A stretch of 64,000 nucleotides of DNA, taken from IMG/VR virus record IMGVR_UViG_3300020576_004326, positions 1 through 64,000 of that record; one strand, 5' to 3'. Positions within the stretch are counted from its first letter, which is position 1, and the number at the start of each line of letters is the position of its first letter. Under the pieces are notes generated by a model, which made no database searches, was not told the DNA's origin, and worked only from the letters and a program-made list of their open reading frames with translations. A program made the translations under genes and the position numbers. This stretch comes from a virus (Duplodnaviria > Caudoviricetes). Of the stretch, positions 20,985 through 60,539 are shown piece by piece.

Positions 20985-21032
20985 GTGAGGCTGTATTCTA
21001 CAAACGGGGCTGCTACATGCGCGTACAGGTGA
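20985..21032 (+). pseudogene. Stranded original 5' end of dnaB
   Basis: GTG after agagga RBS, encodes VRLYSTN versus MRLYSVN at 21697; short match. Confidence 0.6.
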
Positions 21033-23659: not shown

Positions 23660-23957
23660 AGTTCTTCCTCCGATTCCGTCGGCGCTGCTGATTAGCTGCA
23701 AGCGTCCCTACCGCGGCCCGATCGTGCCCGGCAGCATCTTCGCGTGGGAGCCCGACCTCCTGCACGCCCGTACGCTCTGCCTCGTCACCGACGTTCGCGA
23801 CGGGCTAGTCTACAGCACCGACCTCGACTACTCGAAGGAGGTGCACAACGACGAGTCTCGTTTCAGGGAAGCGTGCGTCCCCACGCTGTTCCAGCCGTGG
23901 CCTACCGAGAAGCCCGCGGTGGGGTCTATCCCCGACTTCGCTAGGGATTTCGCATGA
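23652..23957 (+). CDS. Hypothetical protein
   Basis: 101 aa, overlaps both neighbours at start and stop. Confidence 0.5.
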   Translation: MSRVLPPIPSALLISCKRPYRGPIVPGSIFAWEPDLLHARTLCLVTDVRDGLVYSTDLDYSKEVHNDESRFREACVPTLFQPWPTEKPAVGSIPDFARDFA

Positions 23958-26900
23958 GCAATCACGAAGGCAGGGGGTCGCCCGTAGACGCGACGGCCGA
24001 GACTAACTGCGGCAAGTGCGAGCTGCGCGACAAGTGCAGAGACTCGCGCAAGAGCAAGCGCTTCGCATGCACGTTCTTCGTGTTCGAAGAAGACTCGAAG
24101 AAGCTAGACGCCTCGAGCCGCGCCTTCCGCAAGATGATGCGCGAGCTAGTATCGTCGGAGACGGTGCTGTCGGACACGTACAACATCGACGACCGCGACC
24201 TCCCGCTCGCTCCGAACTACTACCAGTGGTGCGTCGGCGAGAAGTACCTCGCCGCCAGCCCGCCGCCCTACCCGTGGCAGCTGGAGGTGGGCCTCCACCT
24301 CTTCAACGACGTGTGCCCTAACCCGAAGTGCACCGACAAGCGGTGGTACACCGAGATACCGCACGATTGCGACGTGCGCGAGATACCCGAGCGCATGTCT
24401 CTGCGCCGTCGCGGCGTCTGTCCGAAGTGCAAGAAGACGCGCCTCGACTACATAAACGAGGGCGTCGAGAAAGATTACAACTCGTATGTGGGTACCGTGG
24501 GCCAGCGGTGCGTGACGGGAGACACGCTGGTAACCACCACGCGCGGCATCACTCGCATATCCGACTGGGCTCGCGGACTTGCTCCGGGGTGGCACGAGGG
24601 GCCCTTTTTCCGTCGCGGTAGGAAGCATTCGCTGTCTGTTATCGGCGAGAACGGCAATACCCTTAGGGTATCGCGCATCTGGGTTTCTAAGCCAGAGCGC
24701 GTTCACCGCGTCACCGTACGCGGCGGACTAGAGATAACGGGAACGGGCGACCACCCTATCATGATGCACTCCGGCTGGAAGAAGCTGAGAGACGTTCGTG
24801 CGGGAGACGTCGTTCCCGTATACTACGGCCAACGCGTGTGGGGGTCGGATAGGAAGCTGACGCCTGATCGCGCCCGGTTCTTGGGCTTCTGGGTGTCGGA
24901 AGGGTCTGGTAGCAAGAAGTCTGTACACGTCACCAACTACGACGACGAAGTGCGTGCGCTCTGTCGCGCCGAGATGGTCAGCCTGTCTCCGGGTGCAGAG
25001 ATCGTCGAGCGCGCACGAGGAGGCGTCGATCCCTCTCTTGGCCTCAAGCGCTGCGTAGGCTCGAAGGACAAGCTGCTCTACGCTAGAGTCGACAAGCTAG
25101 TGGACGGGCTGTGGCGCAAGAGTGCCGACAAGGTTATACCGCGCTCCGTACTAGAGAGCCCGGAGCACGTAGTCGCGGCGTTTCTGCAGGCGCTGTTCGA
25201 GGGAGACGGCTACGCGGGTAAGCGCGGCGTAGGATATGCCTCACTCAGCAAGAAGCTAGTGATGCAGATCAAGGTGGTGCTCGCCAACATGGGCATCGTC
25301 ACGAACATTCGCAAGCGCATGTCGTGGGCCACCAACGGCACGCCCGCTCAAGTCTCCAAGCCCTACTGGTCGCTCGGTATCAGCGGACCCGCACTAGTCG
25401 CGTTCGAGGAGAGGGTAGGTTTCTTCTCGGAGCGCAAACGGGCGGCGCTGCGTCGCGCCGTCGAGCGCTTCGTCAGTCGCGAGAGTGACGTGCCCTACTG
25501 GTACGATCGGTACCCGGAGGAGATAAAGCGCGCGTACCTCGAACTGGTAGCCCGCATAGATGCAGAGTGGTCGAAGTACGAGTCTGTAGGAACCCGCGGC
25601 TACACGAACGGCTGGGTGAGGTTCCGCTACGAGGTAGCAGACTGGCGTCGCCTCGAGTCGGAAAACGTATGCCTGTCCCGCAGCCGTCTACGACGCTACT
25701 GGAATAAGCTGCGCGCGTCTTCTCGCTGGTACGACTTGTCGCCTCCTCTCCGGGCAGACCTGCTAGCGTTCCACGACGTGTACCTGCAGAGCAACTGCTA
25801 CTGGACGGTAGTTAAGAAGACTGCCGTCAGCAAGAAGGCACGCAAGACCTACGACTTCTGCGTGCCCGAGCACCACAAGTTCATGGCCAACGGCCTGCTC
25901 AATCACAACAGCGGCAAGTGCATGTCGGGCTCCACGCTCGTCGCCACCGAGCGCGGCCTCGTACCCATACGCGAGGTAGAGGCCGGCGACTTCGTAGTGG
26001 TCGAGGGACGCGCGCACCGCGTGCTCGGTAAGGTGGCGTCGGGCACCAAGCCCGTGATCGAACTACGCACCAAGCGCGGCATCGTGCTCAAGCTGACTCC
26101 CGACCACAAGGTACTGGGGCCCGGAGGGTGGGTCGAGGCGAGAAACGCTAGGTCGGTGATGATCTGCGCGTCTTCTCTGCCCTGGGGCATCGAGACGTCT
26201 CTCCCTCCTGTAGACCGCAAAGAGAAGACGCTGGCCTGTGCGCTCACGCGCCTCACGCAGGAGGCGGCGCGATCCACCGTCCAGTCGATGGTCACCGAGT
26301 ACTCGGTGTCGGGCACAGACCTAGTGCTCAAGACGCGAGACTACCGCGTCGCGTCCGCCCTGCAGCAGTTCCTGCTTACGAAGAACGTGATCGTGCGCCG
26401 CGCCGTAGACCGCCTCGTGCTGTCGTCGCCGTGGGCGGCGCGCTACGCGGACCAGTTCGGCATCCCCGACCCTCGCGTCGAGTACGTGATCCGCAACGCC
26501 CCGTCCGACTACGAGTCGGTGCTGAGCAGGGCCACGTGCGAGTCGCTGTATAACACGCTGCAGACGGTCGAGGTAGTAGACCAGTGGCACGACCCCAGCA
26601 CGCTGCGCACCGCCTCCGAGTATCGCAACATCTGCATGGCCGGAGAGCTCACGCGCTCGGACGCAGACGCGTGCGCCGACGCCTACGAGAAGCTGCAGCC
26701 GAAGGATGCCTTCCTACGCTTCTTGGCCGTGCAGCGCCTGCGCGCCTGCGCTCGCGCCGAAGTAGACTACGACGAGGTCGTATCTAAGGCGCCCGCCGGG
26801 CGTGAGCAGGTGTACGACATAGAGGTCGAAGACGTGCATCGCTTCGTCGCTAACGGCGCGGTCGTGCACAACTCGTCGGGCCTGGGGTTCATCTGGTCGT

Positions 26901-27364
26901 ACCACACGCACACCCTGATCAAGCTCAAGAACCCCAGCGCGTTCTACGGAATCAAGGCGGGCACGATCCTGCACATGAACATGATCGGCCTCACCTACAC
27001 GGGCGTCAAGCAGGCCGTGTGGGACCCGTTCATGACGACGATGTCGGAGGCCCCCTGGTTCAAGTGTATAGCAGAAGGTGAACAAGTTCGCATGGCCGAC
27101 GGCTCCTTGCGATCTATACAGAACGTCCGATGCGGCGAGCGCGTTCGCACACTTGAGGGAGATTCGACAGTGGACGGTGTATTCGATAACGGTCTCAGAC
27201 GTATAGTGGAGATGGAGCTGTCTAGCGGACATAAGTTGCGATTAACTGAGGATCATAAAGTTCGCTGTGTAGTTGGAGGCGAGCTTGTATGGCTACCAAT
27301 TTCTAGTGTAAATGAAGATATGATGGTAGTCATCGAAAATGAAACTGACACCGACTCACCGTAG
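23954..27364 (+). CDS. terL: Terminase large subunit, N-terminal part, with two inteins and a split intein N-half
   Basis: After intein removal the Walker A reads VGQR-SGK-SS; continues in the 27525 ORF. Confidence 0.85.
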   Translation: MSNHEGRGSPVDATAETNCGKCELRDKCRDSRKSKRFACTFFVFEEDSKKLDASSRAFRKMMRELVSSETVLSDTYNIDDRDLPLAPNYYQWCVGEKYLAASPPPYPWQLEVGLHLFNDVCPNPKCTDKRWYTEIPHDCDVREIPERMSLRRRGVCPKCKKTRLDYINEGVEKDYNSYVGTVGQRCVTGDTLVTTTRGITRISDWARGLAPGWHEGPFFRRGRKHSLSVIGENGNTLRVSRIWVSKPERVHRVTVRGGLEITGTGDHPIMMHSGWKKLRDVRAGDVVPVYYGQRVWGSDRKLTPDRARFLGFWVSEGSGSKKSVHVTNYDDEVRALCRAEMVSLSPGAEIVERARGGVDPSLGLKRCVGSKDKLLYARVDKLVDGLWRKSADKVIPRSVLESPEHVVAAFLQALFEGDGYAGKRGVGYASLSKKLVMQIKVVLANMGIVTNIRKRMSWATNGTPAQVSKPYWSLGISGPALVAFEERVGFFSERKRAALRRAVERFVSRESDVPYWYDRYPEEIKRAYLELVARIDAEWSKYESVGTRGYTNGWVRFRYEVADWRRLESENVCLSRSRLRRYWNKLRASSRWYDLSPPLRADLLAFHDVYLQSNCYWTVVKKTAVSKKARKTYDFCVPEHHKFMANGLLNHNSGKCMSGSTLVATERGLVPIREVEAGDFVVVEGRAHRVLGKVASGTKPVIELRTKRGIVLKLTPDHKVLGPGGWVEARNARSVMICASSLPWGIETSLPPVDRKEKTLACALTRLTQEAARSTVQSMVTEYSVSGTDLVLKTRDYRVASALQQFLLTKNVIVRRAVDRLVLSSPWAARYADQFGIPDPRVEYVIRNAPSDYESVLSRATCESLYNTLQTVEVVDQWHDPSTLRTASEYRNICMAGELTRSDADACADAYEKLQPKDAFLRFLAVQRLRACARAEVDYDEVVSKAPAGREQVYDIEVEDVHRFVANGAVVHNSSGLGFIWSYHTHTLIKLKNPSAFYGIKAGTILHMNMIGLTYTGVKQAVWDPFMTTMSEAPWFKCIAEGEQVRMADGSLRSIQNVRCGERVRTLEGDSTVDGVFDNGLRRIVEMELSSGHKLRLTEDHKVRCVVGGELVWLPISSVNEDMMVVIENETDTDSP
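24509..25909 (+). mobile_element. Intein 1 of TerL (467 aa) with LAGLIDADG endonuclease
   Basis: CVTGDTLV ... NGLLNHN|S; FLGFWVSEGS and FLQALFEGDG blocks. Confidence 0.93.
25919..26872 (+). mobile_element. Intein 2 of TerL (318 aa), degenerate endonuclease
   Basis: CMSGSTLV, LTPDHKV ... NGAVVHN|S. Confidence 0.92.
27065..27364 (+). mobile_element. Split intein N-half (99 aa) of TerL
   Basis: CIAEGEQV, LTEDHKV, then TAG; AT-rich. Confidence 0.88.
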
Positions 27365-29195: not shown

Positions 29196-29936
29196 ATGCG
29201 CTTCGAAGTTCAACCCGGGGATCGCTTTGGTGATATTATAGTCTTGCAAGAACTTTCACACTACGTTTCTCCAAAGGGGTCGATCAAGCGAAGGTTCCGT
29301 TGCCGATGTCGATGTGGGTTTACTGACGAGTACCTTCTACCTCATATAAGAAAAGGAAAAATGCGTGCCCATGCTTGTAGGATCACCGGATCTGACCGAG
29401 CGTATAACCGACACGGACTGAGTAAGCACCGCCTGTACACCGTATGGAAAGATATGATCCGGCGATGCTATAATGATAAGCATCCTCGGTACGCAGATTA
29501 CGGCGGCCGCGGAATTAGGGTCTGCAAGTCGTGGCGAAGATCGGTTGCAGAGTTTATAAACTGGGAAGAATCGCTTCCTCAAAAGACGCGCTGGTCTGCA
29601 GGCAAGAGCTTGGATCGTATCGACAACGATGGCGACTACTCTCCGAATAATTGTCGGTGGGCTACTGCTCTGGAGCAAGCTAATAACCAGCGACCGAAGC
29701 GACCAAGAGATCCTAAATCTTTCTCTGGAGGTCGTAGTCCTTATCTCTTGGTTACTTATAAAGGCCGACGCCTGTTGGCCACAGATTTGTACGAGATGTA
29801 CGAATCTTCGGGTGCTCTGGGTATGGGAGTTACCTACGACACCTTCCTTCGCCGCATACGGGAAGGCCTCAAGCCCAGAGTTGCGCTTACCCGGCCCAGA
29901 TACGCTAGAAATACTACAAAAACGGGGCATTCTTAG
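29196..29936 (+). mobile_element. HNH homing endonuclease
   Basis: YGGRGIRVC...LDRIDNDGDYSPNNCRW; low GC. Confidence 0.88.
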
Positions 29937-36869: not shown

Positions 36870-37235
36870 ATGGCTAAGCACAGCTGGACGAAATCTACAC
36901 TGGGTCACGGGGAGCAGATGTGCTCCAAGTGCGGAATCACGAACAGGGAAGCGTCGATCTTGGGCAAGCTAGAGTCGTGCAGCGTCGCCGACCCTCCTGC
37001 CGTGTACGCTGCCCCGTCGGAGGAAGGATACTACTGGGCGAAGCTGGTGACGCCCTCCGAGATGCCGGCCACCGAAGACTGGGTATCTGAGCAGTGGGAG
37101 ATCGTCGAGGTATTCGACAACAACGGCGAAGGCGACGAGAGTCTCGGCGTGGCGGTTCCTGGCGTTCCTCCCACGCAGTGGGTAAAGAACTTCACCTGGG
37201 GTCCTCGCATAGAGAAGCCCGACAACTTAGAGTAA
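36870..37235 (+). CDS. Hypothetical protein
   Basis: aggaga RBS; CSKC motif. Confidence 0.55.
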   Translation: MAKHSWTKSTLGHGEQMCSKCGITNREASILGKLESCSVADPPAVYAAPSEEGYYWAKLVTPSEMPATEDWVSEQWEIVEVFDNNGEGDESLGVAVPGVPPTQWVKNFTWGPRIEKPDNLE

Positions 37236-37248
37236 AGGAAGAGAAGCA

Positions 37249-37629
37249 ATGAGCATCGGTATATACTGCATCACCGAAGAGGCGTTAGAGATAATTCGCG
37301 CCTCCCTCAGAGTAGCAGCCGTGCGCGGCGGGGTGGTAACCGAAGCGGGCCGCACGATATCCGACGCAGAGTTCTCGCACGTACTGAGCGACGTGCTCCG
37401 GGCCGCGCCGCCGTCTAGGTGGGCCGCGAGGAACGAACCCGACCCCCACGACTCTCGCTACGACTGCGAGAGGAGCGAGCTGATCGGCGGCAACCTGTCC
37501 GACGACGAGGTCGCCAACGCAGTGTTCATGGCTCCAGACATACACACAACCACAATCGCCAAGGATCGCATCAGATGGCTATCGAGGAAGCTGGCCGAGA
37601 AGCAGAAGACTTCGCCCGCCAGCTCCTAG
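37249..37629 (+). CDS. Hypothetical protein
   Basis: aaggaag RBS. Confidence 0.5.
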
Positions 37630-38096
37630 CGCAGCGCAAGTTTCTGAAGCGCCTCGCGATCAAGCTGTCTGGCGGACGCGACGCGGAGGACCTGGTTCAA
37701 GAGACGCTGCTCAAGGCGCTTACGAAGCGGCACCTGTTCGACGGCACCAACTTGCCGGCGTGGCTCTCTACGGTGCTGCGCAACACTTTCCTGTCGCGGT
37801 ATCGCAAGTACCACCGCGAGATAGAAGACGTAGACGAGGCGGCCGCCCTGTCGCTCGTGCAGCACCCCAGCCAGCACCACACGGCCGAGCTGTCGGAGCT
37901 GTACGACGCACTTGCGCAGCTACCCTACGACCATCGCGAGACGCTGCTGATGATCGCCGTAGATCGTCTCAGCTACGCGGAGGTATCCGAACTGGCCGGC
38001 GTACCCGAAGGAACGGTAAAGAGCCGCGTATTTCGGGCGCGCGAGGCACTGGCACGCATACTGGGGGTGGAGCCGCCCCCGCGCGAAGATGAGTAA
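37575..38096 (+). CDS. ECF sigma factor, EcfG/RpoE2/SigT-like (general stress response)
   Basis: [49 protein letters not shown]...[11 protein letters not shown]. Confidence 0.88.
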
Positions 38097-38150
38097 AATC
38101 ACAGCAGAGGCTGCTACCGCACCTCTGCTTTTTTCTGGCGGAGAAACCCG

Positions 38151-39290
38151 ATGAATAACGACGGTACGCGAATCGAGGCTCCCTACTGCCTGTTCCTGGC
38201 AGACGCCACCGACCCCAAGGCGATCAAGACGGCGTCGGGCCTCGTAGAGTGGGCTCCGGATCGCGTGGCGTGCGAGTACGGCCTGCCGGGCTGCACCGTG
38301 TCCGCGGGAGTCCCGCGCGCCGAGACGCTCAACGAGGCGGTCGAGAAGTACGGCGCCAAGACACTCGTGGTCGGCGTCGTCACCAACACGGGAGACACGC
38401 TGCCCGCTCCCTGGAAGAAGGCCTTCCGCCTGGCCATGACCGCCGGCCTCGACGTCGCGAGCGGGATGCACGACAGGCTGTCCGACGACGCCACCCTCGT
38501 CCACTATTCGATGAACACGGGCACCCAGCTTCACGACTTTAGGTACACGCCCAAAGAGTACAAGATCGGCAAGGGCGTCCCGCGCCCCGGCATCCGCGTC
38601 ATGGTCGTCGGCCAAGACTGCAACATCGGCAAGAAGTACACGTCCGTCGCGCTCACTCGCGCGCTCGTCAACGCCGGCGTAGACGCCTCGTTCCGGCCCA
38701 CCGGCCAGACTGGCGCGCTTATCGCGGAGGGCGAGCGCAGCGTCGTGGTGGACACCGTCGTGTCCGACTTTCTGACGGGAGCCGTCGAGTGGCTGTGCCC
38801 GGCCGCGGCGCCCGACCACGTCGACGTGGTGGAAGGGCAGGGCTGCCTGTGGAGTCCCGGCAGTGGGCAGCTAGTCGTCTCGCTCATCTACGGCAGCCAG
38901 CCCGATTTCTTGGTGATGTGCGTCGATCCCCCGCGCACGAAGCTGCGCGGCCTCGACTACGAGGTTGTCGACCCCGTGTTCGATATAGAGTCGAATCTGC
39001 AGTTCGCGCGGCGCGTCAACCCGCACGCGAGGCTCCTCGGCATTTCGGTGAACCTCTCCCACGTTCCGCTCCACGAGACTGCCGCCGTCATGGCAAAGTA
39101 CGACGTCGTAGCCGGCTGCTTTCGCGGAAGCATCGGCAGTAAAGATTTCGTGCCGCGAGCGTTCGACCCCAACGACGCCGTCTCTATGTCGCGCGCCGTG
39201 TCGGCCGTGAAGCTGCTGGCGGAGCAGAACGCCGCGGGCAACCACCGCAACGTCTCCGACACGAAGTTCATGTCGGCGAAGACTTTCTGA
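38151..39290 (+). CDS. DUF1611 / DgcN-like protein, paralogue 1
   Basis: PYCLFLAD...KTASG, ASGMH, VGQDCNIGKKYT, FRPTGQTG, EGQG, GSQPD. Confidence 0.85.
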   Translation: MNNDGTRIEAPYCLFLADATDPKAIKTASGLVEWAPDRVACEYGLPGCTVSAGVPRAETLNEAVEKYGAKTLVVGVVTNTGDTLPAPWKKAFRLAMTAGLDVASGMHDRLSDDATLVHYSMNTGTQLHDFRYTPKEYKIGKGVPRPGIRVMVVGQDCNIGKKYTSVALTRALVNAGVDASFRPTGQTGALIAEGERSVVVDTVVSDFLTGAVEWLCPAAAPDHVDVVEGQGCLWSPGSGQLVVSLIYGSQPDFLVMCVDPPRTKLRGLDYEVVDPVFDIESNLQFARRVNPHARLLGISVNLSHVPLHETAAVMAKYDVVAGCFRGSIGSKDFVPRAFDPNDAVSMSRAVSAVKLLAEQNAAGNHRNVSDTKFMSAKTF

Positions 39291-39302
39291 GAGGACGATA
39301 CT

Positions 39303-40403
39303 ATGATGCTCCCGCACGAGTGCACCCCTCCCTACATCCTGTACCTGGGAGACTCGACCACGCTCGACGAGATAAAGACGGCGACCGGCCTGCTCAAGTG
39401 GCGCCCCGAGTGGTGCACGGGGTTCTACGCGGAACCCGAGTGCACCGTGACGCACGCGATGGGCAACCTCCCCCGCATATCTACCGTGCAGGAAGGCGTC
39501 ATACTGGGAGCCAAGACGTTCGTGATCTGCTGCGTCGCGCGCGGCAGCAAGCTATCGCCGGCGTGGTACGAGACGGTGGCCAACTGGATCAGTTCGGGCA
39601 GCGGCATCGACGTAGCCACCGGAACGCACGAGCGCATCAAGTCTCACCCCCAGTACGCCAAGCTGGCGGAGGCATCGGGCTGTCGCCTCGTAGACTATCG
39701 CCACCACGACACGCAGTACCCCCTGTGTCGCGGCGAGAAGCGCTCGGGTCTGCGCCTGCTCACTATCGGTCACGACGGCTGCGTCGGTAAGAAGTACACG
39801 TCGCTCGCCCTGTGTGCCGAGCTAAAGCGGCGCGGCATCGCTCACAAGTTCGCACCCACCGGACAGACGGGCGCGCTTATCGCAGGCGCCGAAGACAGGT
39901 CGATCGTGATCGACTCTACCGAGGCCGACTTCGCCTCGGGCGCCGCGGCGTGGCTCACGCCTCCCGCCGAAGACGCGGGCTTCTGGTACGTGATCGAGGG
40001 GCAGGCCAGCCTCTTCCACCCCGGCTGGGCTCCCCCGAGCCTCGCTCTACTCTACGGCAGCCAGCCCGACGCCCTCGTGTACTGCATCGACCCGACCCGT
40101 CGGCTGCAGCTAGGCACCGCCCTCCGAGTCGTCCCGATGGCTGCAGAGATCGACCTGAACCTGCAGCTGGCGCGGCGCGTCAATCGCGGCGTCGCTCCCT
40201 ACGCCGTGAGCGTGAACATGGCGAACGTGCCTCCCGAAGACTACGACCTCGTCATGGCCGGGGTGCGCGACGAGGTATCGCAGCTCAGCTACGACGTGTC
40301 GGTGATCGACCCCAATCGACCCGACACGTTCTACCACCTCATCGAGCGCATGGTGAGCCGCTCGGTAGAGGTGCGAACGCGCGCGGCGGAGGTGCCCGAA
40401 TAA
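39303..40403 (+). CDS. DUF1611 / DgcN-like protein, paralogue 2
   Basis: PYILYLGD...KTATG, ATGTH, IGHDGCVGKKYT, FAPTGQTG, EGQAS, GSQPD. Confidence 0.85.
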   Translation: MMLPHECTPPYILYLGDSTTLDEIKTATGLLKWRPEWCTGFYAEPECTVTHAMGNLPRISTVQEGVILGAKTFVICCVARGSKLSPAWYETVANWISSGSGIDVATGTHERIKSHPQYAKLAEASGCRLVDYRHHDTQYPLCRGEKRSGLRLLTIGHDGCVGKKYTSLALCAELKRRGIAHKFAPTGQTGALIAGAEDRSIVIDSTEADFASGAAAWLTPPAEDAGFWYVIEGQASLFHPGWAPPSLALLYGSQPDALVYCIDPTRRLQLGTALRVVPMAAEIDLNLQLARRVNRGVAPYAVSVNMANVPPEDYDLVMAGVRDEVSQLSYDVSVIDPNRPDTFYHLIERMVSRSVEVRTRAAEVPE

Positions 40404-41374
40404 TGGCGTCGATGGACCTCAAGCTGTGCAAGTCTTCGCTCTCTGTCGGAGCCAAGATACGCGACCTGTTCGAGCGCCACATGCGCGAGAAGCTGGGCAA
40501 GAAGAGCAAGCGCGTCGCTCTCTTGCTGTCGGGGGGCATCGACTCGGCGCTGGCGGGCATAGCGGCCACGCGCGCGGGTCACGAGGTGCACGCGTACACC
40601 TTCCGAATGGCAGGGCAGCCCGGCTTCGACGACAAGTGGGCCGAGCACACCGCCAAGGTGATGGGGTGGAAGTGGGAGCTGATAGAGCTTCCCACCGACC
40701 TCTACGCCGTGGCGGGCCTCGTGCCGATGATGCACGACGAGTTCGCCTGTCGCCTCAAGCGCAACTACGAGTGCCTCTGGCCTCTCCTGTTCTCCTACGC
40801 GAGCATCGAAGAGAAGTTCGTCGTGTCGGGCCTCGCGGCAGACAACCACTACATGCCGAACCGCAAAGCCCAGAAGCTGGGGGCGCGCGACGACAAGGGC
40901 GTATTCGACGAGCTCCGATCGGGGTCGTTCGCCAAGCTGCACGAGGGCGGCATAGACGCGCTGTCGCGAGACTACAACCCCGCTAACCTGTGGATGAACC
41001 TGCAGGCCGAGCGGCACTTCGGGAAGGTAGGAGTAAATCCCTACCTAGAGCGCGAGCTGTACGACCTGCTCCTCCCGTTCGACTGGAACCAGCTGCACAA
41101 GCCTCGGCAGAAGCACCACCTCGTGGGTGCGTACCCCGAGGTGATGAAGTACGTGGGGCACCGTAATCATCGTAACTACCAAAACGCCGGGATAGACACG
41201 CACTTCGAGAAGCTCCTCGAGACGCCTCTCAACATCAAGAACTCGCGCCGCGCGCTAGACATGTACGCGTCGTGGCGACACCACCCCAAAGATTTCGCGA
41301 AGGCGCTGTCTAAGGTGCGCGACAAGTACGCGGCGAAGGCCGAGAAGCTGCTTACGCGCAAGAGCAAGAGGTAG
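40403..41374 (+). CDS. Asparagine-synthetase-like ATP-dependent amide ligase (synthetase domain only)
   Basis: PP-loop LLSGGIDS, VVSGLAAD, NPYL; no Ntn glutaminase domain; TAATG coupling to paralogue 2. Confidence 0.75.
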   Translation: MASMDLKLCKSSLSVGAKIRDLFERHMREKLGKKSKRVALLLSGGIDSALAGIAATRAGHEVHAYTFRMAGQPGFDDKWAEHTAKVMGWKWELIELPTDLYAVAGLVPMMHDEFACRLKRNYECLWPLLFSYASIEEKFVVSGLAADNHYMPNRKAQKLGARDDKGVFDELRSGSFAKLHEGGIDALSRDYNPANLWMNLQAERHFGKVGVNPYLERELYDLLLPFDWNQLHKPRQKHHLVGAYPEVMKYVGHRNHRNYQNAGIDTHFEKLLETPLNIKNSRRALDMYASWRHHPKDFAKALSKVRDKYAAKAEKLLTRKSKR

Positions 41375-41378
41375 CAAA

Positions 41379-42470
41379 GTGAAAGCGATAGACTGGAGAG
41401 ACTCTGCGTCGCACAAGCTGGTTCGCTTCGTGTGCGAGCGCTACGGCGCAGTGGCCGCCGAGCTTGCGTTCGGGCTCACGCGCGGTACCGTTCGCGGCTT
41501 CGTGCACAGAGAGCGCGTAGTGATCGTTCCTTCTAGCCACGCCGACCAGTTCTCGGCTCACGCACTGGTAGAGTTCTGCATCAAGGAGGGCATCACGCAC
41601 GGCGGACTGCCCGCCACCGAAGGCGGGCACTTCGGGAACCCCGTCCTCGAAGAAGTCGCCGCCGTAGACTGCTCTAAGGTGCAGACGCGGTACCTCGCTC
41701 GTCTCACCGAGAAGACGCTGTACGCTACGTCTCCGCGTCCTAGAGCCGCTCCGAATCCTCCCGCTCCGAAGAAGGTCGCGGTGAAGCCGAAGGCGCTTCC
41801 AGTTCCCGCACCATCTACTGAACCCGTTGCGGAGAAAGAACCCGAGCCGAAGCCTGCGGTGGTTGAAGCGTCTGAGCCCGTCGAGGTCAAGGCGCCCGAG
41901 CCCGTAGCGAAAGCACCGGAGAATGCCGAGGCCTCCGCGCCCTCGGTTCCTAAGCACTCTTCTGCGCCTCATCCTCTTGCCCCCGCTCGCAGCGTAAGCG
42001 CGGCCTCGGCTCGGGTAGACGCACACCGCCCCGTTCGAGATCGCGTCCCTTCCGCAGCGGAGGTGCGCGCCCTAGAGTTCGACTCGACCGAAGACGTAGA
42101 GTACTTGGTCGAGGTTCCCGGAGAAGACGCGGCGCGACTCGCTCGTCTCCGCAAGAAGTTCCCGAACGCCGTCAACTTCTTCAAGGCCAAGGCGATAATG
42201 CAGGCGGGGGTGCGCACGAACGTGTGCCGTACCCCGCTGTGGGACCTCGACCCCGAGTGCCTGTCTACCGAGTCGCCGTATCGCGTCAAGTACAGCAACT
42301 ATCTCCGAGATCGCTCGCGCTACGTCTGCGGCAACCCGACAGAATCTACCGACTCGTTCACGTGCCGAGCCTGCGCCCGCGCACTGGGTGATCCCGTTCG
42401 CGGCAAGAGCTACGTGCGGTTTACAGGCAAGGGCGACGGGTCTGCGTCGCGCTTCGTTAAGAGGAGCTGA
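41379..42470 (+). CDS. GcrA-like transcriptional regulator (divergent)
   Basis: N-terminal W.D...GLTRGTVRGFVHR; Pro/Ala/Glu linker; C-terminal CRTPLWD...CG...C..C. Confidence 0.5.
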   Translation: MKAIDWRDSASHKLVRFVCERYGAVAAELAFGLTRGTVRGFVHRERVVIVPSSHADQFSAHALVEFCIKEGITHGGLPATEGGHFGNPVLEEVAAVDCSKVQTRYLARLTEKTLYATSPRPRAAPNPPAPKKVAVKPKALPVPAPSTEPVAEKEPEPKPAVVEASEPVEVKAPEPVAKAPENAEASAPSVPKHSSAPHPLAPARSVSAASARVDAHRPVRDRVPSAAEVRALEFDSTEDVEYLVEVPGEDAARLARLRKKFPNAVNFFKAKAIMQAGVRTNVCRTPLWDLDPECLSTESPYRVKYSNYLRDRSRYVCGNPTESTDSFTCRACARALGDPVRGKSYVRFTGKGDGSASRFVKRS

Positions 42471-42473
42471 CTC

Positions 42474-43037
42474 GTGCTGCTATCCGACGTAGACTTGTGC
42501 CGACTAGGCGAGTCGTTCATATCTCCCTTCACCCCGGAGCAGGTAAAGGTCTGCGACGCCGAGAGGCTCGTGTCCTACGGCGCCTCCAGCTACGGATACG
42601 ACGCGCGGCTGGCTCGCGAGTTCAAGGTGTTCACCGACCTCAAGTGCGCGGTCATGGACCCGAAGAACCCGCCCGACGACGCGTTCGTCTCGATGGAGGC
42701 TACGGCAGGTAAGCCGTTCGTGATCCCGCCGCGCGGTTACGTGCTCGGGCGCACCGTGGAGCACTTCTCGATGCCGCCCGACGTGCTCGGGCTCTGCGTC
42801 GGCAAGTCTACCTACGCGCGCTCGGGGCTCATCGTCAACGTGACGCCGCTAGAGCCTGCGTGGCGCGACTTCGTCACGCTAGAGTTTACGAACGCGCTGC
42901 CGATCCCCATGCTCGTCTACCCTGACGAGGGCATCTGTCAGTTCCTCTTCTTCCGCGGACCGCCCTGCCGCACGAACTACGCCGACCGCGGAGGTAAGTA
43001 TCAGGACCAGGTGGGCGTCGTTCTTCCCAAGATGTAG
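42474..43037 (+). CDS. dcd: dCTP deaminase
   Basis: SYGASSYGYD, GKSTYARSG, PLEPAW, YPDEGICQ, KYQDQ. Confidence 0.93.
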   Translation: MLLSDVDLCRLGESFISPFTPEQVKVCDAERLVSYGASSYGYDARLAREFKVFTDLKCAVMDPKNPPDDAFVSMEATAGKPFVIPPRGYVLGRTVEHFSMPPDVLGLCVGKSTYARSGLIVNVTPLEPAWRDFVTLEFTNALPIPMLVYPDEGICQFLFFRGPPCRTNYADRGGKYQDQVGVVLPKM

Positions 43038-43045
43038 GAGCAGCC

Positions 43046-43321
43046 GTGCTTAGGAACCTGAGAAGGACGCTACGCCTAGCGAAGAAGCTGCGCGACCCGC
43101 ACTTCTGCAGCAAGGCGGATCAGTGGCAGGGATCGTCGTGGGCACGCGAGCAGATATTCGCTGGCCGCGTGCACCACGTCGAGTTCGTGCTCGACGCTTC
43201 TGCCTACGACCGCGACGCGCACGACGATAATTTCTTGCGCGGCGCCCGTGACACTCTAATCTCGATGCTGATGGAGCCCGAGGTGGCTGCATACGTCATC
43301 GCCAACACCAGGAGAGACTGA
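43046..43321 (+). CDS. Hypothetical protein
   Basis: Fills the gap between dcd and the kinase. Confidence 0.45.
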   Translation: MLRNLRRTLRLAKKLRDPHFCSKADQWQGSSWAREQIFAGRVHHVEFVLDASAYDRDAHDDNFLRGARDTLISMLMEPEVAAYVIANTRRD

Positions 43322-44493
43322 TGGCGAAATATCGCGGGGTAGCGTTCGCGGGGTTCGGCGGCGTAGGCAAGAGCGAGGCTACGTCTTACGCCTGCGCTCT
43401 GCTCGACGCTCAGCGCGTGCACGTCAAAGACGTGCTGGGGGAGTGCATCGCACCCATGCTGCTGCGGCTGGGCGTGTCGGTACCCGAGCTGCACGACTAC
43501 GTGTACGGGGCGAAGAAAGACGCTCCGTTGCCTCTCGCGCCAGAGCTATCTGCGGTCAAGCTACTGCAGGCGCAAGGCAACGGATTCCTCCTAGACTGCG
43601 GAGACCCCATGCTCGCGCAGCGCCTCGTTCTCGATAAGTTCCCCGAGACGATACCCGTCGTAAACGAGAGCCTGCGCTACCCGCGCGAAGCCGCCTACCT
43701 CAAGAGTCGCGGCCTGTTCATCGTTCGCATCACGCGTCCAGGCTACGACGGAAAGCGCACCCTAGACGGCGCCCTGCACGAGAGCGAGCGCGGGGCGCTA
43801 GAGATCGACGCCGACGCCGAGATACTTAACGACGGCGACCTGTCGAAGCTGTTCGCAGGAGTGCGCGAGGTTCTAGACTACGCAGGTTTCTACATCACGC
43901 GCGAGCAGCGAACTGTAGGCCACGTAGTCGTGGTGAACGGCAAGCCGCGCGCCGGCAAAGACGAGTTCTGCGCGCTCGTCGCCAAGTACTGCGAGGCGCG
44001 GTGGATGATCCCTGTGGGCACGTTCTCCACCATCGACCCCGTGCGCGAGCTGCTCGCGCACGTAGACGTAGACGTTACGCAGAAGCGCCCGGAGGATCGG
44101 CGCCTCCTGTCGGTGCTCGGAGAGGAGCTGGAGCGTCACTCCGACTTCAAGACGAAGACGACGCTGCGGCGCACGGGGGATCACGCTACTCGCGGCATCG
44201 CCTTCGTGCACGCTCGCGAGGGGCACACCATCGAGAAGCTGCGCTCGCAGGTCGAGTGTATGCTCCCGCGTTCGACGTTCTCTACGCTGTGGCTGTCTCG
44301 CCCCGGCTACGACCACCCCGAGCCGTCGAACGACTCGGATCGCATCGACGGCTCCGAAGTCTGCTACGACTGGAGCGTCGCTAACTCGGGGTCGCTGCTA
44401 GACTTAGAGTTCGCCGCGGCGCGCTTCGCCGACCTGCTGCTGTCGGGCGCCGCGACGGCTCACGTAAACGCCCTGGGCATGTCTGCCCGATAG
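43321..44493 (+). CDS. Two-domain deoxynucleoside monophosphate kinase-like protein
   Basis: Two P-loops (GFGGVGKS; NGKPRAGKD); SLRYPRE...ITRPG...HESE...NDG; second domain HARE...SRPG...SND...NSGS. Confidence 0.7.
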   Translation: MAKYRGVAFAGFGGVGKSEATSYACALLDAQRVHVKDVLGECIAPMLLRLGVSVPELHDYVYGAKKDAPLPLAPELSAVKLLQAQGNGFLLDCGDPMLAQRLVLDKFPETIPVVNESLRYPREAAYLKSRGLFIVRITRPGYDGKRTLDGALHESERGALEIDADAEILNDGDLSKLFAGVREVLDYAGFYITREQRTVGHVVVVNGKPRAGKDEFCALVAKYCEARWMIPVGTFSTIDPVRELLAHVDVDVTQKRPEDRRLLSVLGEELERHSDFKTKTTLRRTGDHATRGIAFVHAREGHTIEKLRSQVECMLPRSTFSTLWLSRPGYDHPEPSNDSDRIDGSEVCYDWSVANSGSLLDLEFAAARFADLLLSGAATAHVNALGMSAR

Positions 44494-44504
44494 GAGAGAG
44501 AACC

Positions 44505-45197
44505 ATGACCAACATCAAGATCACGGTAGAGAGCTCCGACGACAAACTGCGTGCGACTACTCTCGCCTTCGTCTCGCAGCAGCTTCACTTCGTCGGGGTA
44601 AAATTCACCGCTCCCGCTGGATCGAGCAGCTCTACATCCGTAGCCGACATGAACGTGTTCCGCAACAGCTTCGTAACGCTCGCAGAAGAGAAGACGCTGC
44701 CCCAGCGAGGTGTCCGGCAGCATCCGTCCACCGCGCCGATCTCGGCGCACCCGAAGTTCGTAGACATGATTCGAGCGCGCGAATACGCCGCAGACATTGC
44801 GCGCCTCGTGAAGCCGCGGTTGGCTCATAACGTGGTCCTGTACTACACGGTATTCGTCGACTGCGCCAGTCACCGAGACGAGCTGGTCGCCTATTTCCTG
44901 AACAATCCCAAGACCAGTATAAAGGATCAAGTGCTAGTCGCCGCTTCGAGCTCCGAGCTACGCGGGTTCACCCGCATCGGCTACTTCGTGTTCGGCAAGC
45001 AGCCTCCGCTGCACGCTAGGGAGGCGCTGCGGCGCTCCACTTCGACCGTACTCGGCATCGTCAACAAGGCCGTGATGCCCTACTCCGAGAGCGACCCCGA
45101 CGAAGATGACGCCGACTTCGACCTCGACGACGATGACGACGATGACGACGTGCCGAGGAAAAAGTCTAAGGTTAAGAAGTCGTCGGTAGAAGACTGA
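44505..45197 (+). CDS. Hypothetical protein with acidic/basic tail
   Basis: aggaga RBS, 230 aa. Confidence 0.6.
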   Translation: MTNIKITVESSDDKLRATTLAFVSQQLHFVGVKFTAPAGSSSSTSVADMNVFRNSFVTLAEEKTLPQRGVRQHPSTAPISAHPKFVDMIRAREYAADIARLVKPRLAHNVVLYYTVFVDCASHRDELVAYFLNNPKTSIKDQVLVAASSSELRGFTRIGYFVFGKQPPLHAREALRRSTSTVLGIVNKAVMPYSESDPDEDDADFDLDDDDDDDDVPRKKSKVKKSSVED

Positions 45198-45209
45198 GGA
45201 GGACGCGTC

Positions 45210-45890
45210 ATGGCAAACGGATACGAGCAGCAGTACCTCGATCTCCTCGAGACGATCATGACGAAGGGAGTTCGCAAGCGCGACCGGACGGGAGTCGGAA
45301 CGACGTCTCTGTTCGGCGCCCAGCTTCGGTTCGACGTCGGCAGAGAGTTCCCTCTCCTGACGACGAAGAAGCTGTTCACGCACGCCATCATGGTGGAGCT
45401 TGAGTGGATGCTTCGCGGCCACACGAACGTCCAGTACCTGCAAGAGCGCAGATGCACCATCTGGGACGAGTGGGCAGACGAGAAGGGCGATCTGGGTCCC
45501 GTCTACGGCAAGCAGTGGCGTGAGTGGGCGCACGAAGTATGTGAAGAAGACCCACGCGGTGTCGTTAGTTCAATTTGCAGGGATGAACCCATCGACCAGA
45601 TCGCGCTGGCGCTCGACCTCCTCAAGAACGACCCCTACTCTCGTCGCAACGTCGTCACGGCGTGGAACCCCGCCGACAACCCAAAGATGGCGCTGACGCC
45701 CTGCCACTGCCTGTTTCAGTTTAACTGCAGGCCTCTTTCGGTACAAGAGAAGATAACCTTACTACGCGCTCGGGGTCGAGTCTTACCCGACGCGGGCGAC
45801 GCGGTATCGGGGCCGCAGTCGTCTACGGAATACCCGGCTGACCTAGGAGATGCTCCGCAGTTCTACATCGATCTGCATCTCTACCAGCGT
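45210..45890 (+). CDS. thyA: Thymidylate synthase, exon 1
   Basis: [36 protein letters not shown]. Confidence 0.92.
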
Positions 45891-47004
45891 TCGAATAATG
45901 AGCGCCTCCACTGAGTAATCGGTGAAGCAAACTCTGCTAAACGGGGAACGGTCACCGACCCAATCCCGTGCTAAACTTCGTCCAGACGTGCTTTTAGGAT
46001 TCGCGTTCAAAGTAAACTTCTCCTATAGGGGAGAAGCACGATGGCCGTGACTTACATAATAGAACACGTCGGTAGTGGCAAATTCTACGTCGGCAGCACA
46101 GGTAAACCGCATCTTAGGTTTGACCGTCATTGGCGAGCACTTAGAAGTGGTGCACACCACTGCATACGCCTTCAACGTCTGTGGAATAGATGCGCTGGTG
46201 AAGGGTTCAAGATAAAAGTCTTGCGCCGTGATTCGCTAGAACGCTGTCGTGCGTTAGAGGGGCGATACCTTTCATCGTCGAAAATACGCAATAGGTTGCT
46301 TAACAGCAGCTTATCAATCGCGTACGGAGACACGACGGGTAATCATCCCGAGAAGCAGAAAATCATCGCGAAGCGCAGCGCTGCTGCTCGCGCCGTTAAC
46401 GCCAAACTTTCACCAGAAGAGCGTGCAGCAATGCATAGACGTCCTGGTGCACAGAACGGAATGTACGGCAAGAAGCACTCTCGTAAATCTCTTGCGATGA
46501 TGAGTAGAGCAAACAAAGGTAACTCGTATGCTGCGGGATCGGTACGGTCTGCAGAAACTCGCGCCAGACTATCTAAGGTCGCGCAAGAGCGAGTCGGGAA
46601 ACTAAACGGGTTCTTCGGTAAGCATCATAGTGCAGAAACCAAAGAGCGCATACGTCAGAAGAAAATTGGGCACCGCCCCACCAATCTTCGTCCCGTCAAA
46701 GTAGGTAAGCAGCGCTTTGATAGCGTCGCCGATGCCGCTAGATACCTCAATGTTGTCTCCGCCACGGTACTTTACCGTATAAAGGCGCGTAGCGCCAAGT
46801 ATGCTTCTTACCGCTATCTGGACGAATAAATGCCTAACGACTATCGAAACCGTTCCTATCAGGAACAGGGAGTAGAGTAGGGCCAAGCGGCTCGAAATGC
46901 AGAGGGTCCCTTCGGGATCGTGATATAGTCTGATCTGTGCGGCAACGTACAGCAGTTCTCGAAAGAGAACGGAGACGGCTTAGCGAACCGTCTTGAACAT
47001 ATTG
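45891..47004 (+). ncRNA. Group I intron in thyA
   Basis: Exon ends in U and intron ends in G; P4 aacggggaa/aatcccgtg; P3 ctctgc/gcagag; P7 gacta/tagtc (GATATAGTC S element); splicing restores YQR|SADVFLGVPFN. Confidence 0.9.
46041..46829 (+). mobile_element. Intron-encoded GIY-YIG endonuclease with NUMOD3 repeats
   Basis: VTYII...FYVGS; G.KHS repeats; enclosed by the 10-bp stem ttcgtccaga/tctggacgaa. Confidence 0.9.
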
Positions 47005-47310
47005 TCAGCCGACGTGTTCCTGGGCGTCCCCTTCAACATCGCCAGCTACGCCATGCTACTGATGATAATGGCGCGGTGCGCGGGGCCGAAGTACGCCGTG
47101 GGCGAGTTCGTGCACTCTTTCGGAGACGTGCACGTGTACACGAATCACGAAGAGCAGGTGCGAACCCAGCTCTCGCGCGCGCCCCGGCGCGGCCCTCGCG
47201 TGTCGCTGGCGCTCTCGGAGAACGCCAAGCCCTGGGACTTCACGCACGAGAAGGTACTAGTCGCAGACTACGCTCCGTGGCCCACTATTGCTGCACCCGT
47301 AGCAATTTAG
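47005..47310 (+). CDS. thyA: Thymidylate synthase, exon 2
   Basis: SADVFLGVPFNIASY, GDVHVYTNH. Confidence 0.92.
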   Translation, partial: SADVFLGVPFNIASYAMLLMIMARCAGPKYAVGEFVHSFGDVHVYTNHEEQVRTQLSRAPRRGPRVSLALSENAKPWDFTHEKVLVADYAPWPTIAAPVAI

Positions 47311-47488
47311 CTACCTCTCGTCGATCTTTAGTATACCAACGACTAGGGAGACGGTATCTCACGCCTTGTGCGTTGAACACCAAGGTAAGCAGTCGGTAAC
47401 CTGCATGCTTAACAGCTTTAGCCTTTGCTGACGTTCTAGCATAAATCGCATCGTCCGTCAACCCCAAAAACTCGTCCGTGGCCGGCGA
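47285..47488 (-). pseudogene. C-terminal relic of a PD-(D/E)xK homing endonuclease
   Basis: FLGLTDDAIYARTSAKAKAVKHAGYRLL resembles the tails of 4143..5189 and 17765..18862; AT-rich; in-frame stop upstream. Confidence 0.65.
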
Positions 47489-47511
47489 TCAAGGCGGACG
47501 TTGCGGTATGA
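47476..47511 (+). pseudogene. Stranded original 3' end of thyA
   Basis: PWPAIKADVAV* versus the functional end PWPTIAAPVAI*. Confidence 0.75.
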
Positions 47512-47530
47512 CTTACAGGGGAGAAGAAGC

Positions 47531-47842
47531 ATGAAGTGCCCGAAGTGCGGCGCAGACGTCTCCGAGTCGCTGGAGGAAGACGACCCTTCCTGCGGCATCG
47601 TCGGCGGATACTACTGCGACGCTTGCGACCTGCCGATACCCTACGAGTACGAGCCGCACGACGACGACGTAGACGTGTTCTTCGTCGACAGGGAGTGGCG
47701 GGATAAGATCGCGACCGACCCCGACGCCGCCTACGCACGCGACCGCCCGCTCGGGACGCCTATCTCCGAGATTTCTACGCGGCCCGGTGAACCGGGCTAC
47801 GAGGAGTGGATTCGCATATCCAAGTCGTGGGGTTACGACTAG
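47531..47842 (+). CDS. Zn-ribbon hypothetical protein
   Basis: CPKC...CDAC; ggag RBS. Confidence 0.6.
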   Translation: MKCPKCGADVSESLEEDDPSCGIVGGYYCDACDLPIPYEYEPHDDDVDVFFVDREWRDKIATDPDAAYARDRPLGTPISEISTRPGEPGYEEWIRISKSWGYD

Positions 47843-47858
47843 AAGAAACGAGAGGCAC

Positions 47859-48263
47859 ATGATCATCAGCCTGATAGCCGCCGTGGGCAAGCACGGACAG
47901 ATAGGCCTGAAAGGCGAGTTGCCCTGGCGCGACGAGGCCGACATGGAGTGGTTCTCGAACTGCACCGAGAACGGCCTCGTAGTCGTCGGTAAGCGCACGG
48001 CTCCCTCGATGGGCAGAGTTCACGGCTCTCGCGGCAGGTTCCTCTACGTGCCGACGCGCGACGACACCCGCACCTCGCTTATCGCCCTCGCCGAGAGCGT
48101 CTACTGCAAGTCGGTATGGATCGCTGGCGGGGCGATGCTGTACGACTCGTGGATGCACCGCGTCGACCGCGTGCTCGTGTCGCGCGTGAACTACGACGGA
48201 CCTGCAGACGCCTGGATGCCCGACCTGTCGTGGTCCCCGTTCGCCGTGGCACGAGGAACTTGA
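47859..48263 (+). CDS. folA: Dihydrofolate reductase
   Basis: LIAAVG..GQIG..GELPW..EADM, VVVGKRT, WIAGGAMLY. Confidence 0.88.
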   Translation: MIISLIAAVGKHGQIGLKGELPWRDEADMEWFSNCTENGLVVVGKRTAPSMGRVHGSRGRFLYVPTRDDTRTSLIALAESVYCKSVWIAGGAMLYDSWMHRVDRVLVSRVNYDGPADAWMPDLSWSPFAVARGT

Positions 48264-54207: not shown

Positions 54208-55070
54208 CCGAAGACGCTAAGGGCCTGAGCTGCGCGGCTCGTGCCGAACTCCTTAGAGAGACTGTCGATGCCTACCTCGACGCCCACGATCTAGGCACCA
54301 GCCTCTCACTGAGAATAGACGAATGCTCTTTCGGTCGAGAGGCACTTGCCGCGTGCCTCGAAGAGGCCAAGAGTGCGGGAGACCTCTTCGGCGTCGCCAT
54401 CGCGACCGAGCTGCTTTCCCTCCCCGACGATGTTCTGACGGTGGCCTCCGACTGCGGCCTCAGCGCTGCACTTGATCGCTGGGTGGAGGCTACGGAGCCG
54501 CAATCTGCGTCGCCGAGTTTCTCTCTACCGCCGACTAACGGTCTCACGTGGCTTCCGCCCATCCTGCGCTATCACGAGATAGTAGACTCGTTCGAGAGGG
54601 AACCCCTTTTCGTAGGCGACGAGCTGATAGTAGGCAAGGGGCTGGAGGTAAGCGAGATAATACACCCCGCCGACGACCAGCGCCACCCTGCGTTTGCAAT
54701 CATAGATTGGTTCGCAGTCGGTCTGTCGAAGTTCGCAGTTCTCCGTCAGCCTGTCGGCATCGTGCTCCCCTTGCCGAGGAACCATCCCGGAGTAGCCGTC
54801 CAAGAATTCTGCGCGACGATTCGATACGAGTCGAACCCTATGCTCGGAAAATATCGTCATAAGTTTGCGGCCGTGTACGGGATACTACAGGAGGCTGTTC
54901 TACCCTCGAAGTCTACGGTGGCGACCAAGCCCGTGGCTTTCCTGACTCACCTCGGGTGGTACGACGGCTACGTGCAGTCGATAGGCTGGGACGGAGAGAC
55001 TAACACGTTCACCGTCATCGGCGGAGTACGCAAGCGCGCCAAGACAGAACAGCTGGAGACCGCGCGGTGA
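54204..55070 (+). CDS. Hypothetical protein
   Basis: 288 aa, ATGA overlap. Confidence 0.55.
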   Translation: MTEDAKGLSCAARAELLRETVDAYLDAHDLGTSLSLRIDECSFGREALAACLEEAKSAGDLFGVAIATELLSLPDDVLTVASDCGLSAALDRWVEATEPQSASPSFSLPPTNGLTWLPPILRYHEIVDSFEREPLFVGDELIVGKGLEVSEIIHPADDQRHPAFAIIDWFAVGLSKFAVLRQPVGIVLPLPRNHPGVAVQEFCATIRYESNPMLGKYRHKFAAVYGILQEAVLPSKSTVATKPVAFLTHLGWYDGYVQSIGWDGETNTFTVIGGVRKRAKTEQLETAR

Positions 55071-60393: not shown

Positions 60394-60539
60394 AGCTCTA
60401 CACCGCGCTAGACATACCGACGATGGCCGAGATAAACGCGAAGCGCAAGAAGTTCGTCGGCGCCAGCCTGTTCTCGGGCTGCGGAGGAGCCTCGGTCGGC
60501 ATGAAGCTGGCCGGCATCGACGTGAGGTGCGTCGGATGA
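60390..60539 (+). pseudogene. Stranded original 5' end of the second C5-MTase-fold gene
   Basis: MKLYTALDIPTMAEINAKRKKFVGASLFSGCGGASVGMKLAGIDVR versus MKLYTALDIPTMREINALPKTFVAASLFSGCGGSSVGIKLAGGDVR at 60995. Confidence 0.9.

Follow-up and report, generated by a model that had tools for sequence, protein, structure and literature searches.

What is the function of two proteins of the DUF1611 family that are encoded directly in front of an amide ligase in the genome of a phage? The bacterial family member DgcN is a D-glutamate N-acetyltransferase (EC 2.3.1.312; PMC11747546; PMC12363236). The question is raised by a three-gene module at positions 38151–41374 of a 64,000-nucleotide stretch of viral DNA (“the window”; positions 1 to 64,000 of the IMG/VR record IMGVR_UViG_3300020576_004326), which derives from an 86,918-bp virus record with a CheckV completeness of 33%. 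This record is a jumbo-phage fragment that covers about one third of the genome; besides several inteins and many homing endonucleases, it has genes for topoisomerase II subunits, Fpg, DnaB and a sigma factor. An earlier interpretation of the window, made from its letters without database searches (the “sequence-only reading”), had linked the module to DNA hypermodification; at the level of pathway membership, this interpretation is supported by genomic context and by the homology of the ligase to a characterised enzyme.

The enzyme in question is known from Synechococcus phage S-B43, the system of which (Yang et al., Nat Commun 2025, PMC12783734) makes 5-carboxymethylcytosine (5cxmC) as well as 5-glycylcarboxymethylcytosine; the reference ions are m/z 286.1 for 5cxmdC and 343.1 for the glycine amide. 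There, CmoA makes carboxy-S-adenosylmethionine (carboxy-SAM) from S-adenosylmethionine and prephenate, and CmoX, a C5-methylase homologue with the signature SPPC plus Arg350—the latter replacing the motif-X Asn—writes 5cxmC; subsequently, the asparagine-synthetase homologue CmoY ligates glycine to 5cxmC with ATP, as shown biochemically (PMC12783734). The statement in the sequence-only reading that CmoY amidates 5cxmC is thus correct, the reaction being, specifically, a ligation of glycine. The description of this pathway dates from December 2025, and the range of amide modifications is given there as unknown (PMC12783734).

On the evidence presented below, the DUF1611 pair and the ligase most likely belong to this cytosine hypermodification pathway. 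Within it, the triad probably constitutes an amide-forming and tailoring branch, with a DUF1611 chemistry that we infer from the bacterial family member.

Layout of the module

The module and the element preceding it are as follows (coordinates in the window).

38104–38134, plus strand: terminator-like hairpin (GCAGAGG ... CCTCTGC, then T6), read directly from the sequence
38151–39290, plus strand: gene 1, DUF1611 paralogue A (379 amino acids, aa), DgcN-like, with a Rossmann-like N-domain and a P-loop C-domain
39303–40403, plus strand: gene 2, DUF1611 paralogue B (366 aa)
40403–41374, plus strand: gene 3, CmoY-like PP-loop amide ligase (323 aa), by homology ATP-dependent and AMP-forming

The three genes are real and under purifying selection, as judged from their G+C content at third codon positions (0.86–0.88) and from their dN/dS ratios of nonsynonymous to synonymous substitution (0.28, 0.14 and 0.15 for genes 1, 2 and 3, respectively, against a 73–84% identical relative). 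Each of them is preceded by a Shine-Dalgarno-like GGAG/GAGG motif, and the synteny of the triad is kept in relatives at 73% and 56% identity. The layout given in the sequence-only reading holds in its main points, i.e., tight packing, a TAATG overlap (gene 2 TAA at 40401–40403, gene 3 ATG at 40403–40405), two diverged full-length DUF1611 proteins, and a PP-loop Asn_synthase domain with the SGGIDS motif and without a glutaminase domain; merely the gap between genes 1 and 2 is 12 and not 13 nucleotides (stop codon at 39288–39290, ATG at 39303). The stop–start overlap between paralogue B and the ligase, which recurs in other phages, suggests that the two are made together. The hairpin lies between a sigma-70-like gene (37419–38096) and gene 1 and suggests that the module begins a new transcription unit; a consensus terminator scan reported only its minus-strand mirror, the loop exceeding the 8-nucleotide rule of that scan.

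The ligase and its partners in the same record

Gene 3 is a homologue of S-B43 CmoY (SpCmoY) over the full length of the latter (30% identity, E 1e-35, residues 19–261 of 271). Its match to Pfam Asn_synthase is confined to residues 18–154 (E 1e-9), it matches phrog_26038 (E 3e-22), the SGGIDS motif of the PP-loop is conserved, and it is the sole gene with an Asn_synthase domain in the 86,918-bp record.

With the proteins of the S-B43 operon as references, candidates for the two preceding steps of the pathway, CmoA and two CmoX-like enzymes as anticipated, are found in the same record.

55067–57295, plus strand: CmoX-like candidate 1 (cytosine C5 carboxymethyltransferase); DNA_methylase E 4e-33 and Intein_splicing; SPPC and ‘ERLGR’ (R350 equivalent)
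60527–62008, plus strand: CmoX-like candidate 2 (cytosine C5 carboxymethyltransferase); 35% identity to SpCmoX, E 6e-52; GSPPC and ‘ERLGR’
62732–63532, plus strand: CmoA-like carboxy-SAM synthase candidate; phrog_4752 E 6e-53; 29% identity to SpCmoA, E 1e-21

Both CmoX homologues carry the SPPC motif together with the arginine equivalent to R350. In candidate 1, an intein starts exactly at the catalytic SPP|C, and the closest PDB structure to candidate 2 is 8yf3 (E 9e-47). Gene 3 thus co-occurs with CmoA and CmoX homologues within the record, at a distance of 14–22 kb.

Two side observations concern these genes. Part of the N-terminal region of candidate 2 resembles HNH-endonuclease-like paralogues of the record, one copy of which is seemingly fused to, or read through into, this gene. 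In addition, a 369-aa open reading frame (63516–64625) overlaps the end of cmoA; it matches phrog_19425 (‘phosphohydrolase’, E 4e-18) and no Pfam family.

Genomic context of DUF1611 in phages and bacteria

The pathway assignment is carried by the neighbourhood of DUF1611 genes, which was surveyed in a collection of 50,697 phage records, in IMG/VR by an alignment-based scan, in metagenome assemblies and at 80 bacterial DgcN loci. Co-occurrence of DUF1611 with cmoA/cmoX across phages had been named beforehand as a test, and its outcome is strongly positive.

In the phage collection, a DUF1611 homologue is present in 34 records, exclusively from jumbo phages of Erwinia or Dickeya, and a CmoY-like gene is present in all 34 as well; in those records for which coordinates were compared, the two genes lie about 1–2 kb apart on the same strand. 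Dickeya phage AD1, for example, has the order CmoA-like (TIGR00740, 145 bits)–DUF1611–CmoY-like. A CmoX homologue with an insertion of roughly 1 kb lies about 17 kb from this cassette; in the CmoX homologues of Alexandravirus phages, such an insertion is found at a place similar to that of the intein of the window.

In IMG/VR, a single-protein scan gave no matches and the alignment-based scan gave 11 loci, in each of which CmoY lies beside DUF1611. Two of them, L015 and L020, represent new lineages, the former with a contiguous CmoX–DUF1611–CmoY–CmoA cluster and the latter with the order CmoX...CmoA–DUF1611–CmoY. Related arrangements are CmoX–x–CmoA–DUF1611–CmoY (L032/L033), CmoX–DUF1611–CmoY–CmoA (L118), DUF1611–300 aa–DUF1611–CmoY (L117) and, on contig P0144, DUF1611–ligase–DCD–kinase, where DCD denotes the dCTP-deaminase-like gene. 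Wherever the downstream side of a phage-type DUF1611 gene is readable—the contig of L116 is too short for this—a CmoY-like neighbour is found; this applies to six metagenome lineages, and the pair usually lies inside a cmoX/cmoA cluster.

At the bacterial DgcN loci, in contrast, homologues of CmoY, CmoA and CmoX were found within 6 kb in none of the 80 cases, against 14 of 14 viral comparison loci for CmoY and 12 of 14 for CmoA. In Pseudoalteromonas, the one bacterial locus examined for its partner gene, the gene after DgcN encodes an MR_MLE racemase, as expected for DgcA; the phage proteins pair with a CmoY-like ligase instead. It is this difference—phage-type DUF1611 adjoining CmoY-like genes, and bacterial DgcN loci not doing so—on which we base the pathway membership of the module.

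Clusters devoid of DUF1611 are informative as well. The sister jumbo phages Y3 and pEa_SNUABM_5 have adjacent CmoA and CmoY genes at the equivalent genome position without DUF1611, and PaBG has the order ParB–CmoX–CmoA–150 aa–CmoY, again without it; therefore, DUF1611 fills a variable tailoring slot before the ligase. In a tree of CmoY proteins, the ligases of the window, of Alexandravirus and of L032 form one clade (support 100/99), and those of Alexandravirus and L032 stand directly after DUF1611 in clusters with cmoA. The ligases of L015 and L020 group with the DUF1611-less ones of Y3, PaBG and pEa_SNUABM_5. As DUF1611-linked ligases thus occur in at least two CmoY clades, the association was formed or lost more than once.

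The DUF1611 paralogues

Both paralogues have the two-domain architecture of DgcN, i.e., DUF1611_N followed by the P-loop domain DUF1611 (Pfam E 3e-17 and 2e-44, respectively, for gene 1; E 2.5e-40 and 9e-11 for the matches to the two families in gene 2). Over 337 residues, their mutual identity is 38% (E 1e-70), paralogue A matches PDB entry 7xrj (E 3e-69), by sequence a DgcN, and both score against the NCBIfam model of DgcN (NF041892) with 312 bits (A) and 274 bits (B), which is below its equivalog cut-off of 480 bits.

In an unrooted tree, with the top matches to paralogue A as bacterial sample, 45 bacterial DgcN sequences and 14 phage sequences fall on opposite sides of a branch with 98% support in the Shimodaira–Hasegawa-like approximate likelihood-ratio test (SH-aLRT), which places the phage proteins outside the sampled bacterial DgcN group. 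The A and B clades (support 99 and 100) each hold the copy of the window together with its 73% and 56% identical relatives; hence, the duplication is old. One A-like and one B-like copy are also present in the more distant lineage L117. A profile search against 1.84 billion representatives suggests that phage-type DUF1611 comprises roughly a dozen or more clusters at 50% identity.

The phage proteins are about 40–46% identical to bacterial DgcN, with which they share the P-loop, the TGQTG and EGQ motifs and a number of invariant Arg, Asp and His residues. Of 100 positions at which 93% or more of 116 bacterial DgcN sequences agree, about 29 are unchanged in every phage copy, including the GxDxxxGK, TGQTG and EGQ motifs along with His, Arg, Asp and Cys residues. 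The other positions of this set (about two thirds) are changed in at least one phage copy, among them Gln, His and Glu residues that are invariant in DgcN; one such Glu is Ala throughout the B clade. This pattern reads as a retained DgcN cofactor and catalytic core with an altered substrate pocket. The sequence-only reading had also noted that the DgcA racemase is absent; indeed, neither MR_MLE (DgcA-type) nor alanine-racemase domains were found in the 86,918-bp record, which covers about a third of the genome.

Proposed pathway and points that weigh against it

In the proposed pathway, the CmoA homologue would supply carboxy-SAM, with which the two CmoX-type homologues would write 5cxmC in DNA after replication; the ligase encoded by gene 3 would then adenylate the 5cxmC carboxylate and couple an amine to it. 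The same side chain would also be the target of the DUF1611 pair, with its P-loop/TGQTG/EGQ core and altered pocket. Most likely, the two proteins are N-acyltransferases that use acyl-CoA to block a free amino group on the ligase-attached acid, which may be a D- or diamino acid. Paralogues A and B might form a hetero-oligomer or act one after the other, and the product would be an N-acyl-aminoacyl-carboxymethylcytosine, a base not yet described. We tentatively predict, with somewhat less than even confidence, that in this phage, and likewise in the cultured Alexandravirus phages, the virion DNA contains 5cxmC that is amide-linked to an amino acid and N-acylated or extended on the DNA by DUF1611.

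Several points weigh against this proposal. The first and main one concerns the chemistry: SpCmoY couples an amino acid via its alpha-amine, which leaves none to acylate; N-acylation therefore requires a diamine or diamino-acid substrate, for which the window offers no evidence. Furthermore, the P-loop of DUF1611 may resemble that of ATP-dependent ligases of the dethiobiotin-synthetase type, so that ligase chemistry is conceivable. The second concerns the record: the triad lies 14–22 kb away from cmoX/cmoA and adjoins dCTP-deaminase-like, dNMP-kinase-like and thyA genes, a local context which on its own would suggest nucleotide metabolism, and the best NCBIfam match of the CmoA candidate, TIGR00740, scores 83 bits, i.e., below the curated cut-off of 193 bits. 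The third concerns independence and expression: the phage lineages that bear the association are not fully independent, because they have jumbo-phage features such as sigma-like genes and inteins in common. Finally, the metatranscriptome evidence over the module consists of contigs only, and these keep the thyA intron; given this retention and possible DNA carry-over, presence in such contigs is not proof of expression.

Alternative explanations

The alternative that survives best is that DUF1611 works in the 5cxmC pathway and never touches DNA, preparing or delivering the amine of the ligase instead, which we regard as unlikely. For example, a free diamino or D-amino acid could be acylated at one amino group and coupled via the other, or DUF1611 could be the nucleophile-supplying partner of a ligase that has no AsnB glutaminase domain. 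DUF1611 always immediately precedes the ligase gene, in many cases with stop and start codons that overlap, which agrees with such a role, and so do the small-molecule amino-acid-family enzymes in some cassettes. In Erwinia phage pEa_SNUABM_1 (L008), the cassette comprises CmoA, a 420-aa protein, DUF1611, an alanine-racemase-like protein of 314 aa (Ala_racemase_N, E 6e-11) and CmoY, the 314-aa and 420-aa genes being located at L008:5049-5993 and L008:2759-4021, respectively; the 420-aa Alexandravirus protein has glycosyltransferase matches at E 0.13 only. In L117, the 300-aa protein between the A-like and B-like DUF1611 copies (L117:1283-2185) has as its only PDB matches D-cysteine desulfhydrase at E 0.13, in which GGNKLR and QSNHVRQ correspond to its GGSKYR and QSNQVRQ, respectively, and may be a pyridoxal-phosphate enzyme of a D-amino-acid family. 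Together, the alanine-racemase-like and the weakly D-cysteine-desulfhydrase-like genes hint at a D-amino-acid theme. However, N-acetylation of a mono-amino acid would destroy the nucleophile, the gain and loss of DUF1611 with respect to the ligase clades is more in keeping with an optional add-on than with an obligate subunit, and SpCmoY works without a partner (PMC12783734).

Less probable, with perhaps a small chance of being correct, is that the DUF1611 proteins are ATP-dependent (ADP-forming) ligases which lengthen the free carboxylate(s) of the CmoY-attached amino acid, one paralogue per carboxylate or per added residue, so that cytosine would come to bear a short, peptide-like chain. With its invariant GxDxxxGKK[YF]T loop and TGQTG motif, the family has what looks like a P-loop for nucleotide binding, and two paralogues match two extension steps. 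Yet the sole characterised family member is an acetyl-CoA-dependent N-acetyltransferase, and no ligase activity is known for DUF1611. In favour of this alternative, only carboxylates remain after a CmoY-type ligation (PMC12783734).

Least probable is a function of the triad outside DNA modification, in the auxiliary metabolism of free D-amino acids, cell-wall precursors or nucleotides: for all the synteny with dCTP-deaminase-like, dNMP-kinase-like and thyA genes—ordinary phage nucleotide genes—and the distance to cmoA/cmoX of 14–22 kb, gene 3 clades with CmoY proteins encoded directly after DUF1611 in cmoA clusters, phage-type DUF1611 has, in every readable case, a CmoY-like gene next to it and in most lineages lies within a cmoX/cmoA cluster, and the bacterial partners of DgcN were not found.

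Relation to known systems and significance

Compared with S-B43, the homologues of the window are 29% (CmoA), 35% and 31–43% (CmoX, with SPPC and Arg) and 30% (CmoY, full length) identical; the PP-loop motif is common to both ligases, and the same post-replicative modification logic is expected in the phage of the window. Differences are the two DUF1611 genes directly before the ligase, the presence of two CmoX paralogues, one of them intein-split, and the distance of 14–22 kb between the ligase and cmoX/cmoA, whereas the S-B43 genes form one operon. The Alexandravirus cassettes (Dickeya phage AD1, Erwinia phages Alexandra and pEa_SNUABM_1) have in common with the window a DUF1611 gene upstream of a ligase of the same clade and a CmoX gene located elsewhere; they differ in having a single DUF1611 gene beside cmoA, in some cases with the 420-aa and 314-aa extras, in contrast to the two anciently duplicated paralogues of the window, to which cmoA is not adjacent.

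In line with the statement of the sequence-only reading that a role of DUF1611 in phage DNA modification is undescribed, no link between the two was found in the literature searched; DUF1611 and phages are co-mentioned only in a genome description, and the term ‘DUF1611’ is absent from the main text and supplements of PMC12783734. What the window adds is a tandem, anciently duplicated DUF1611 pair, its uncoupling from cmoA/cmoX, two CmoX paralogues, a bacterial control and two trees.

A phage-specific offshoot of the DgcN family beside an amide ligase in several jumbo-phage lineages predicts a further layer on top of 5cxmC and, with it, a new natural DNA base. If this were true, DUF1611 would gain a second, quite different biological role and would be the first P-loop DgcN-type enzyme known for the tailoring of DNA bases, and the two specialised paralogues in the lineage of the window would point to a doubly tailored product. 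The idea is testable now, with cultured Erwinia and Dickeya phages that carry the cassette and close relatives without DUF1611 as natural controls. New enzymes that tailor a carboxyl handle on DNA would be of interest for both restriction evasion and enzymatic DNA labelling.

Genes downstream of the triad

Downstream of the triad follow a 363-aa gene, a dCTP-deaminase-like gene, a dNMP-kinase-like gene and thyA. The latter (45210–47310) is split, exon 1 ending after ‘HLYQRS’ (~45890) and exon 2 starting from ~47000 with ‘ADVFLGVPFNIASY’; a GIY-YIG/NUMOD3 homing endonuclease is encoded inside it at 46041–46829. This td-intron-like arrangement is also present in the relative L003, and the insert is retained in contigs from RNA libraries. 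The best PDB matches of thyA are to ThyA of the E. coli type, and the dUMP-specifying Asn is retained in exon 2 (VPFNIASY), on which grounds a dCMP/dUMP-hydroxymethylase was rejected. As thyA is, thus, of the ordinary dUMP-specific type, there is no sign of cytosine C5 being occupied before replication; a pre-replicative cytosine replacement would conflict with CmoX, and none is indicated by the downstream neighbours.

The 363-aa gene (41379–42470) lies directly 3' of the ligase and is syntenic in L003 and L006. Its product seems to consist of a helical N-domain and a conserved, Cys-rich C-domain (CRTPLW...CGNPT...C..C), joined by a disordered Pro-rich linker, and resembles a DNA-binding or regulatory protein rather than an enzyme. 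Searches of Pfam, NCBIfam and PHROG assigned it to no family, and the Atlas gave no usable match; an AlphaFold2 prediction (mean predicted local distance difference test score, pLDDT, 47) modelled the helical N-domain only, and Foldseek returned nothing at E <= 0.001. A GcrA-like N-terminus was considered and found to be unsupported, PF07750 having no match in the record.

A further cassette gene, mobile elements and distribution

Just past the window, at 64640–65092 (L035:2640-3092), a protein of about 150 aa is encoded which belongs to the function-unknown family phrog_23597 and recurs in almost all of the cmo cassettes examined, whether or not they include DUF1611, at the following places.

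PaBG_179
AD1_021
L015:12606-13049
L020:11921-12361
L032:8882-9343
L118:8573-9004

A match to this protein was not found in S-B43. Its AlphaFold2 model has a pLDDT of 85, with Pur-alpha as best fold match at a Z-score of 6.2, which is too weak to trust. The protein may be an undescribed core component of the cmo system.

Inteins interrupt three genes and HNH-type homing-endonuclease paralogues occur at five places.

55067–57295, 15668–17857 and 23954–27364: inteins
9446–10087, 21017–21700, 29196–29936, 59235–59930 and part of the N-terminal region of 60527–62008: HNH-type homing-endonuclease paralogues

The HNH-type paralogues are 30–44% identical to one another, and both of the two that were scanned match phrog_374.

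A ‘skip’ joint between 38965 and 42765, seen in a single contig of one run (X4), was disregarded, as it is supported by 24 letters only on one side. Near-identical contigs (99%) for positions 37000–48000 of the window come from about ten studies of wastewater, activated sludge, rivers and freshwater, with two metatranscriptomic libraries among the runs. The phage is widespread.

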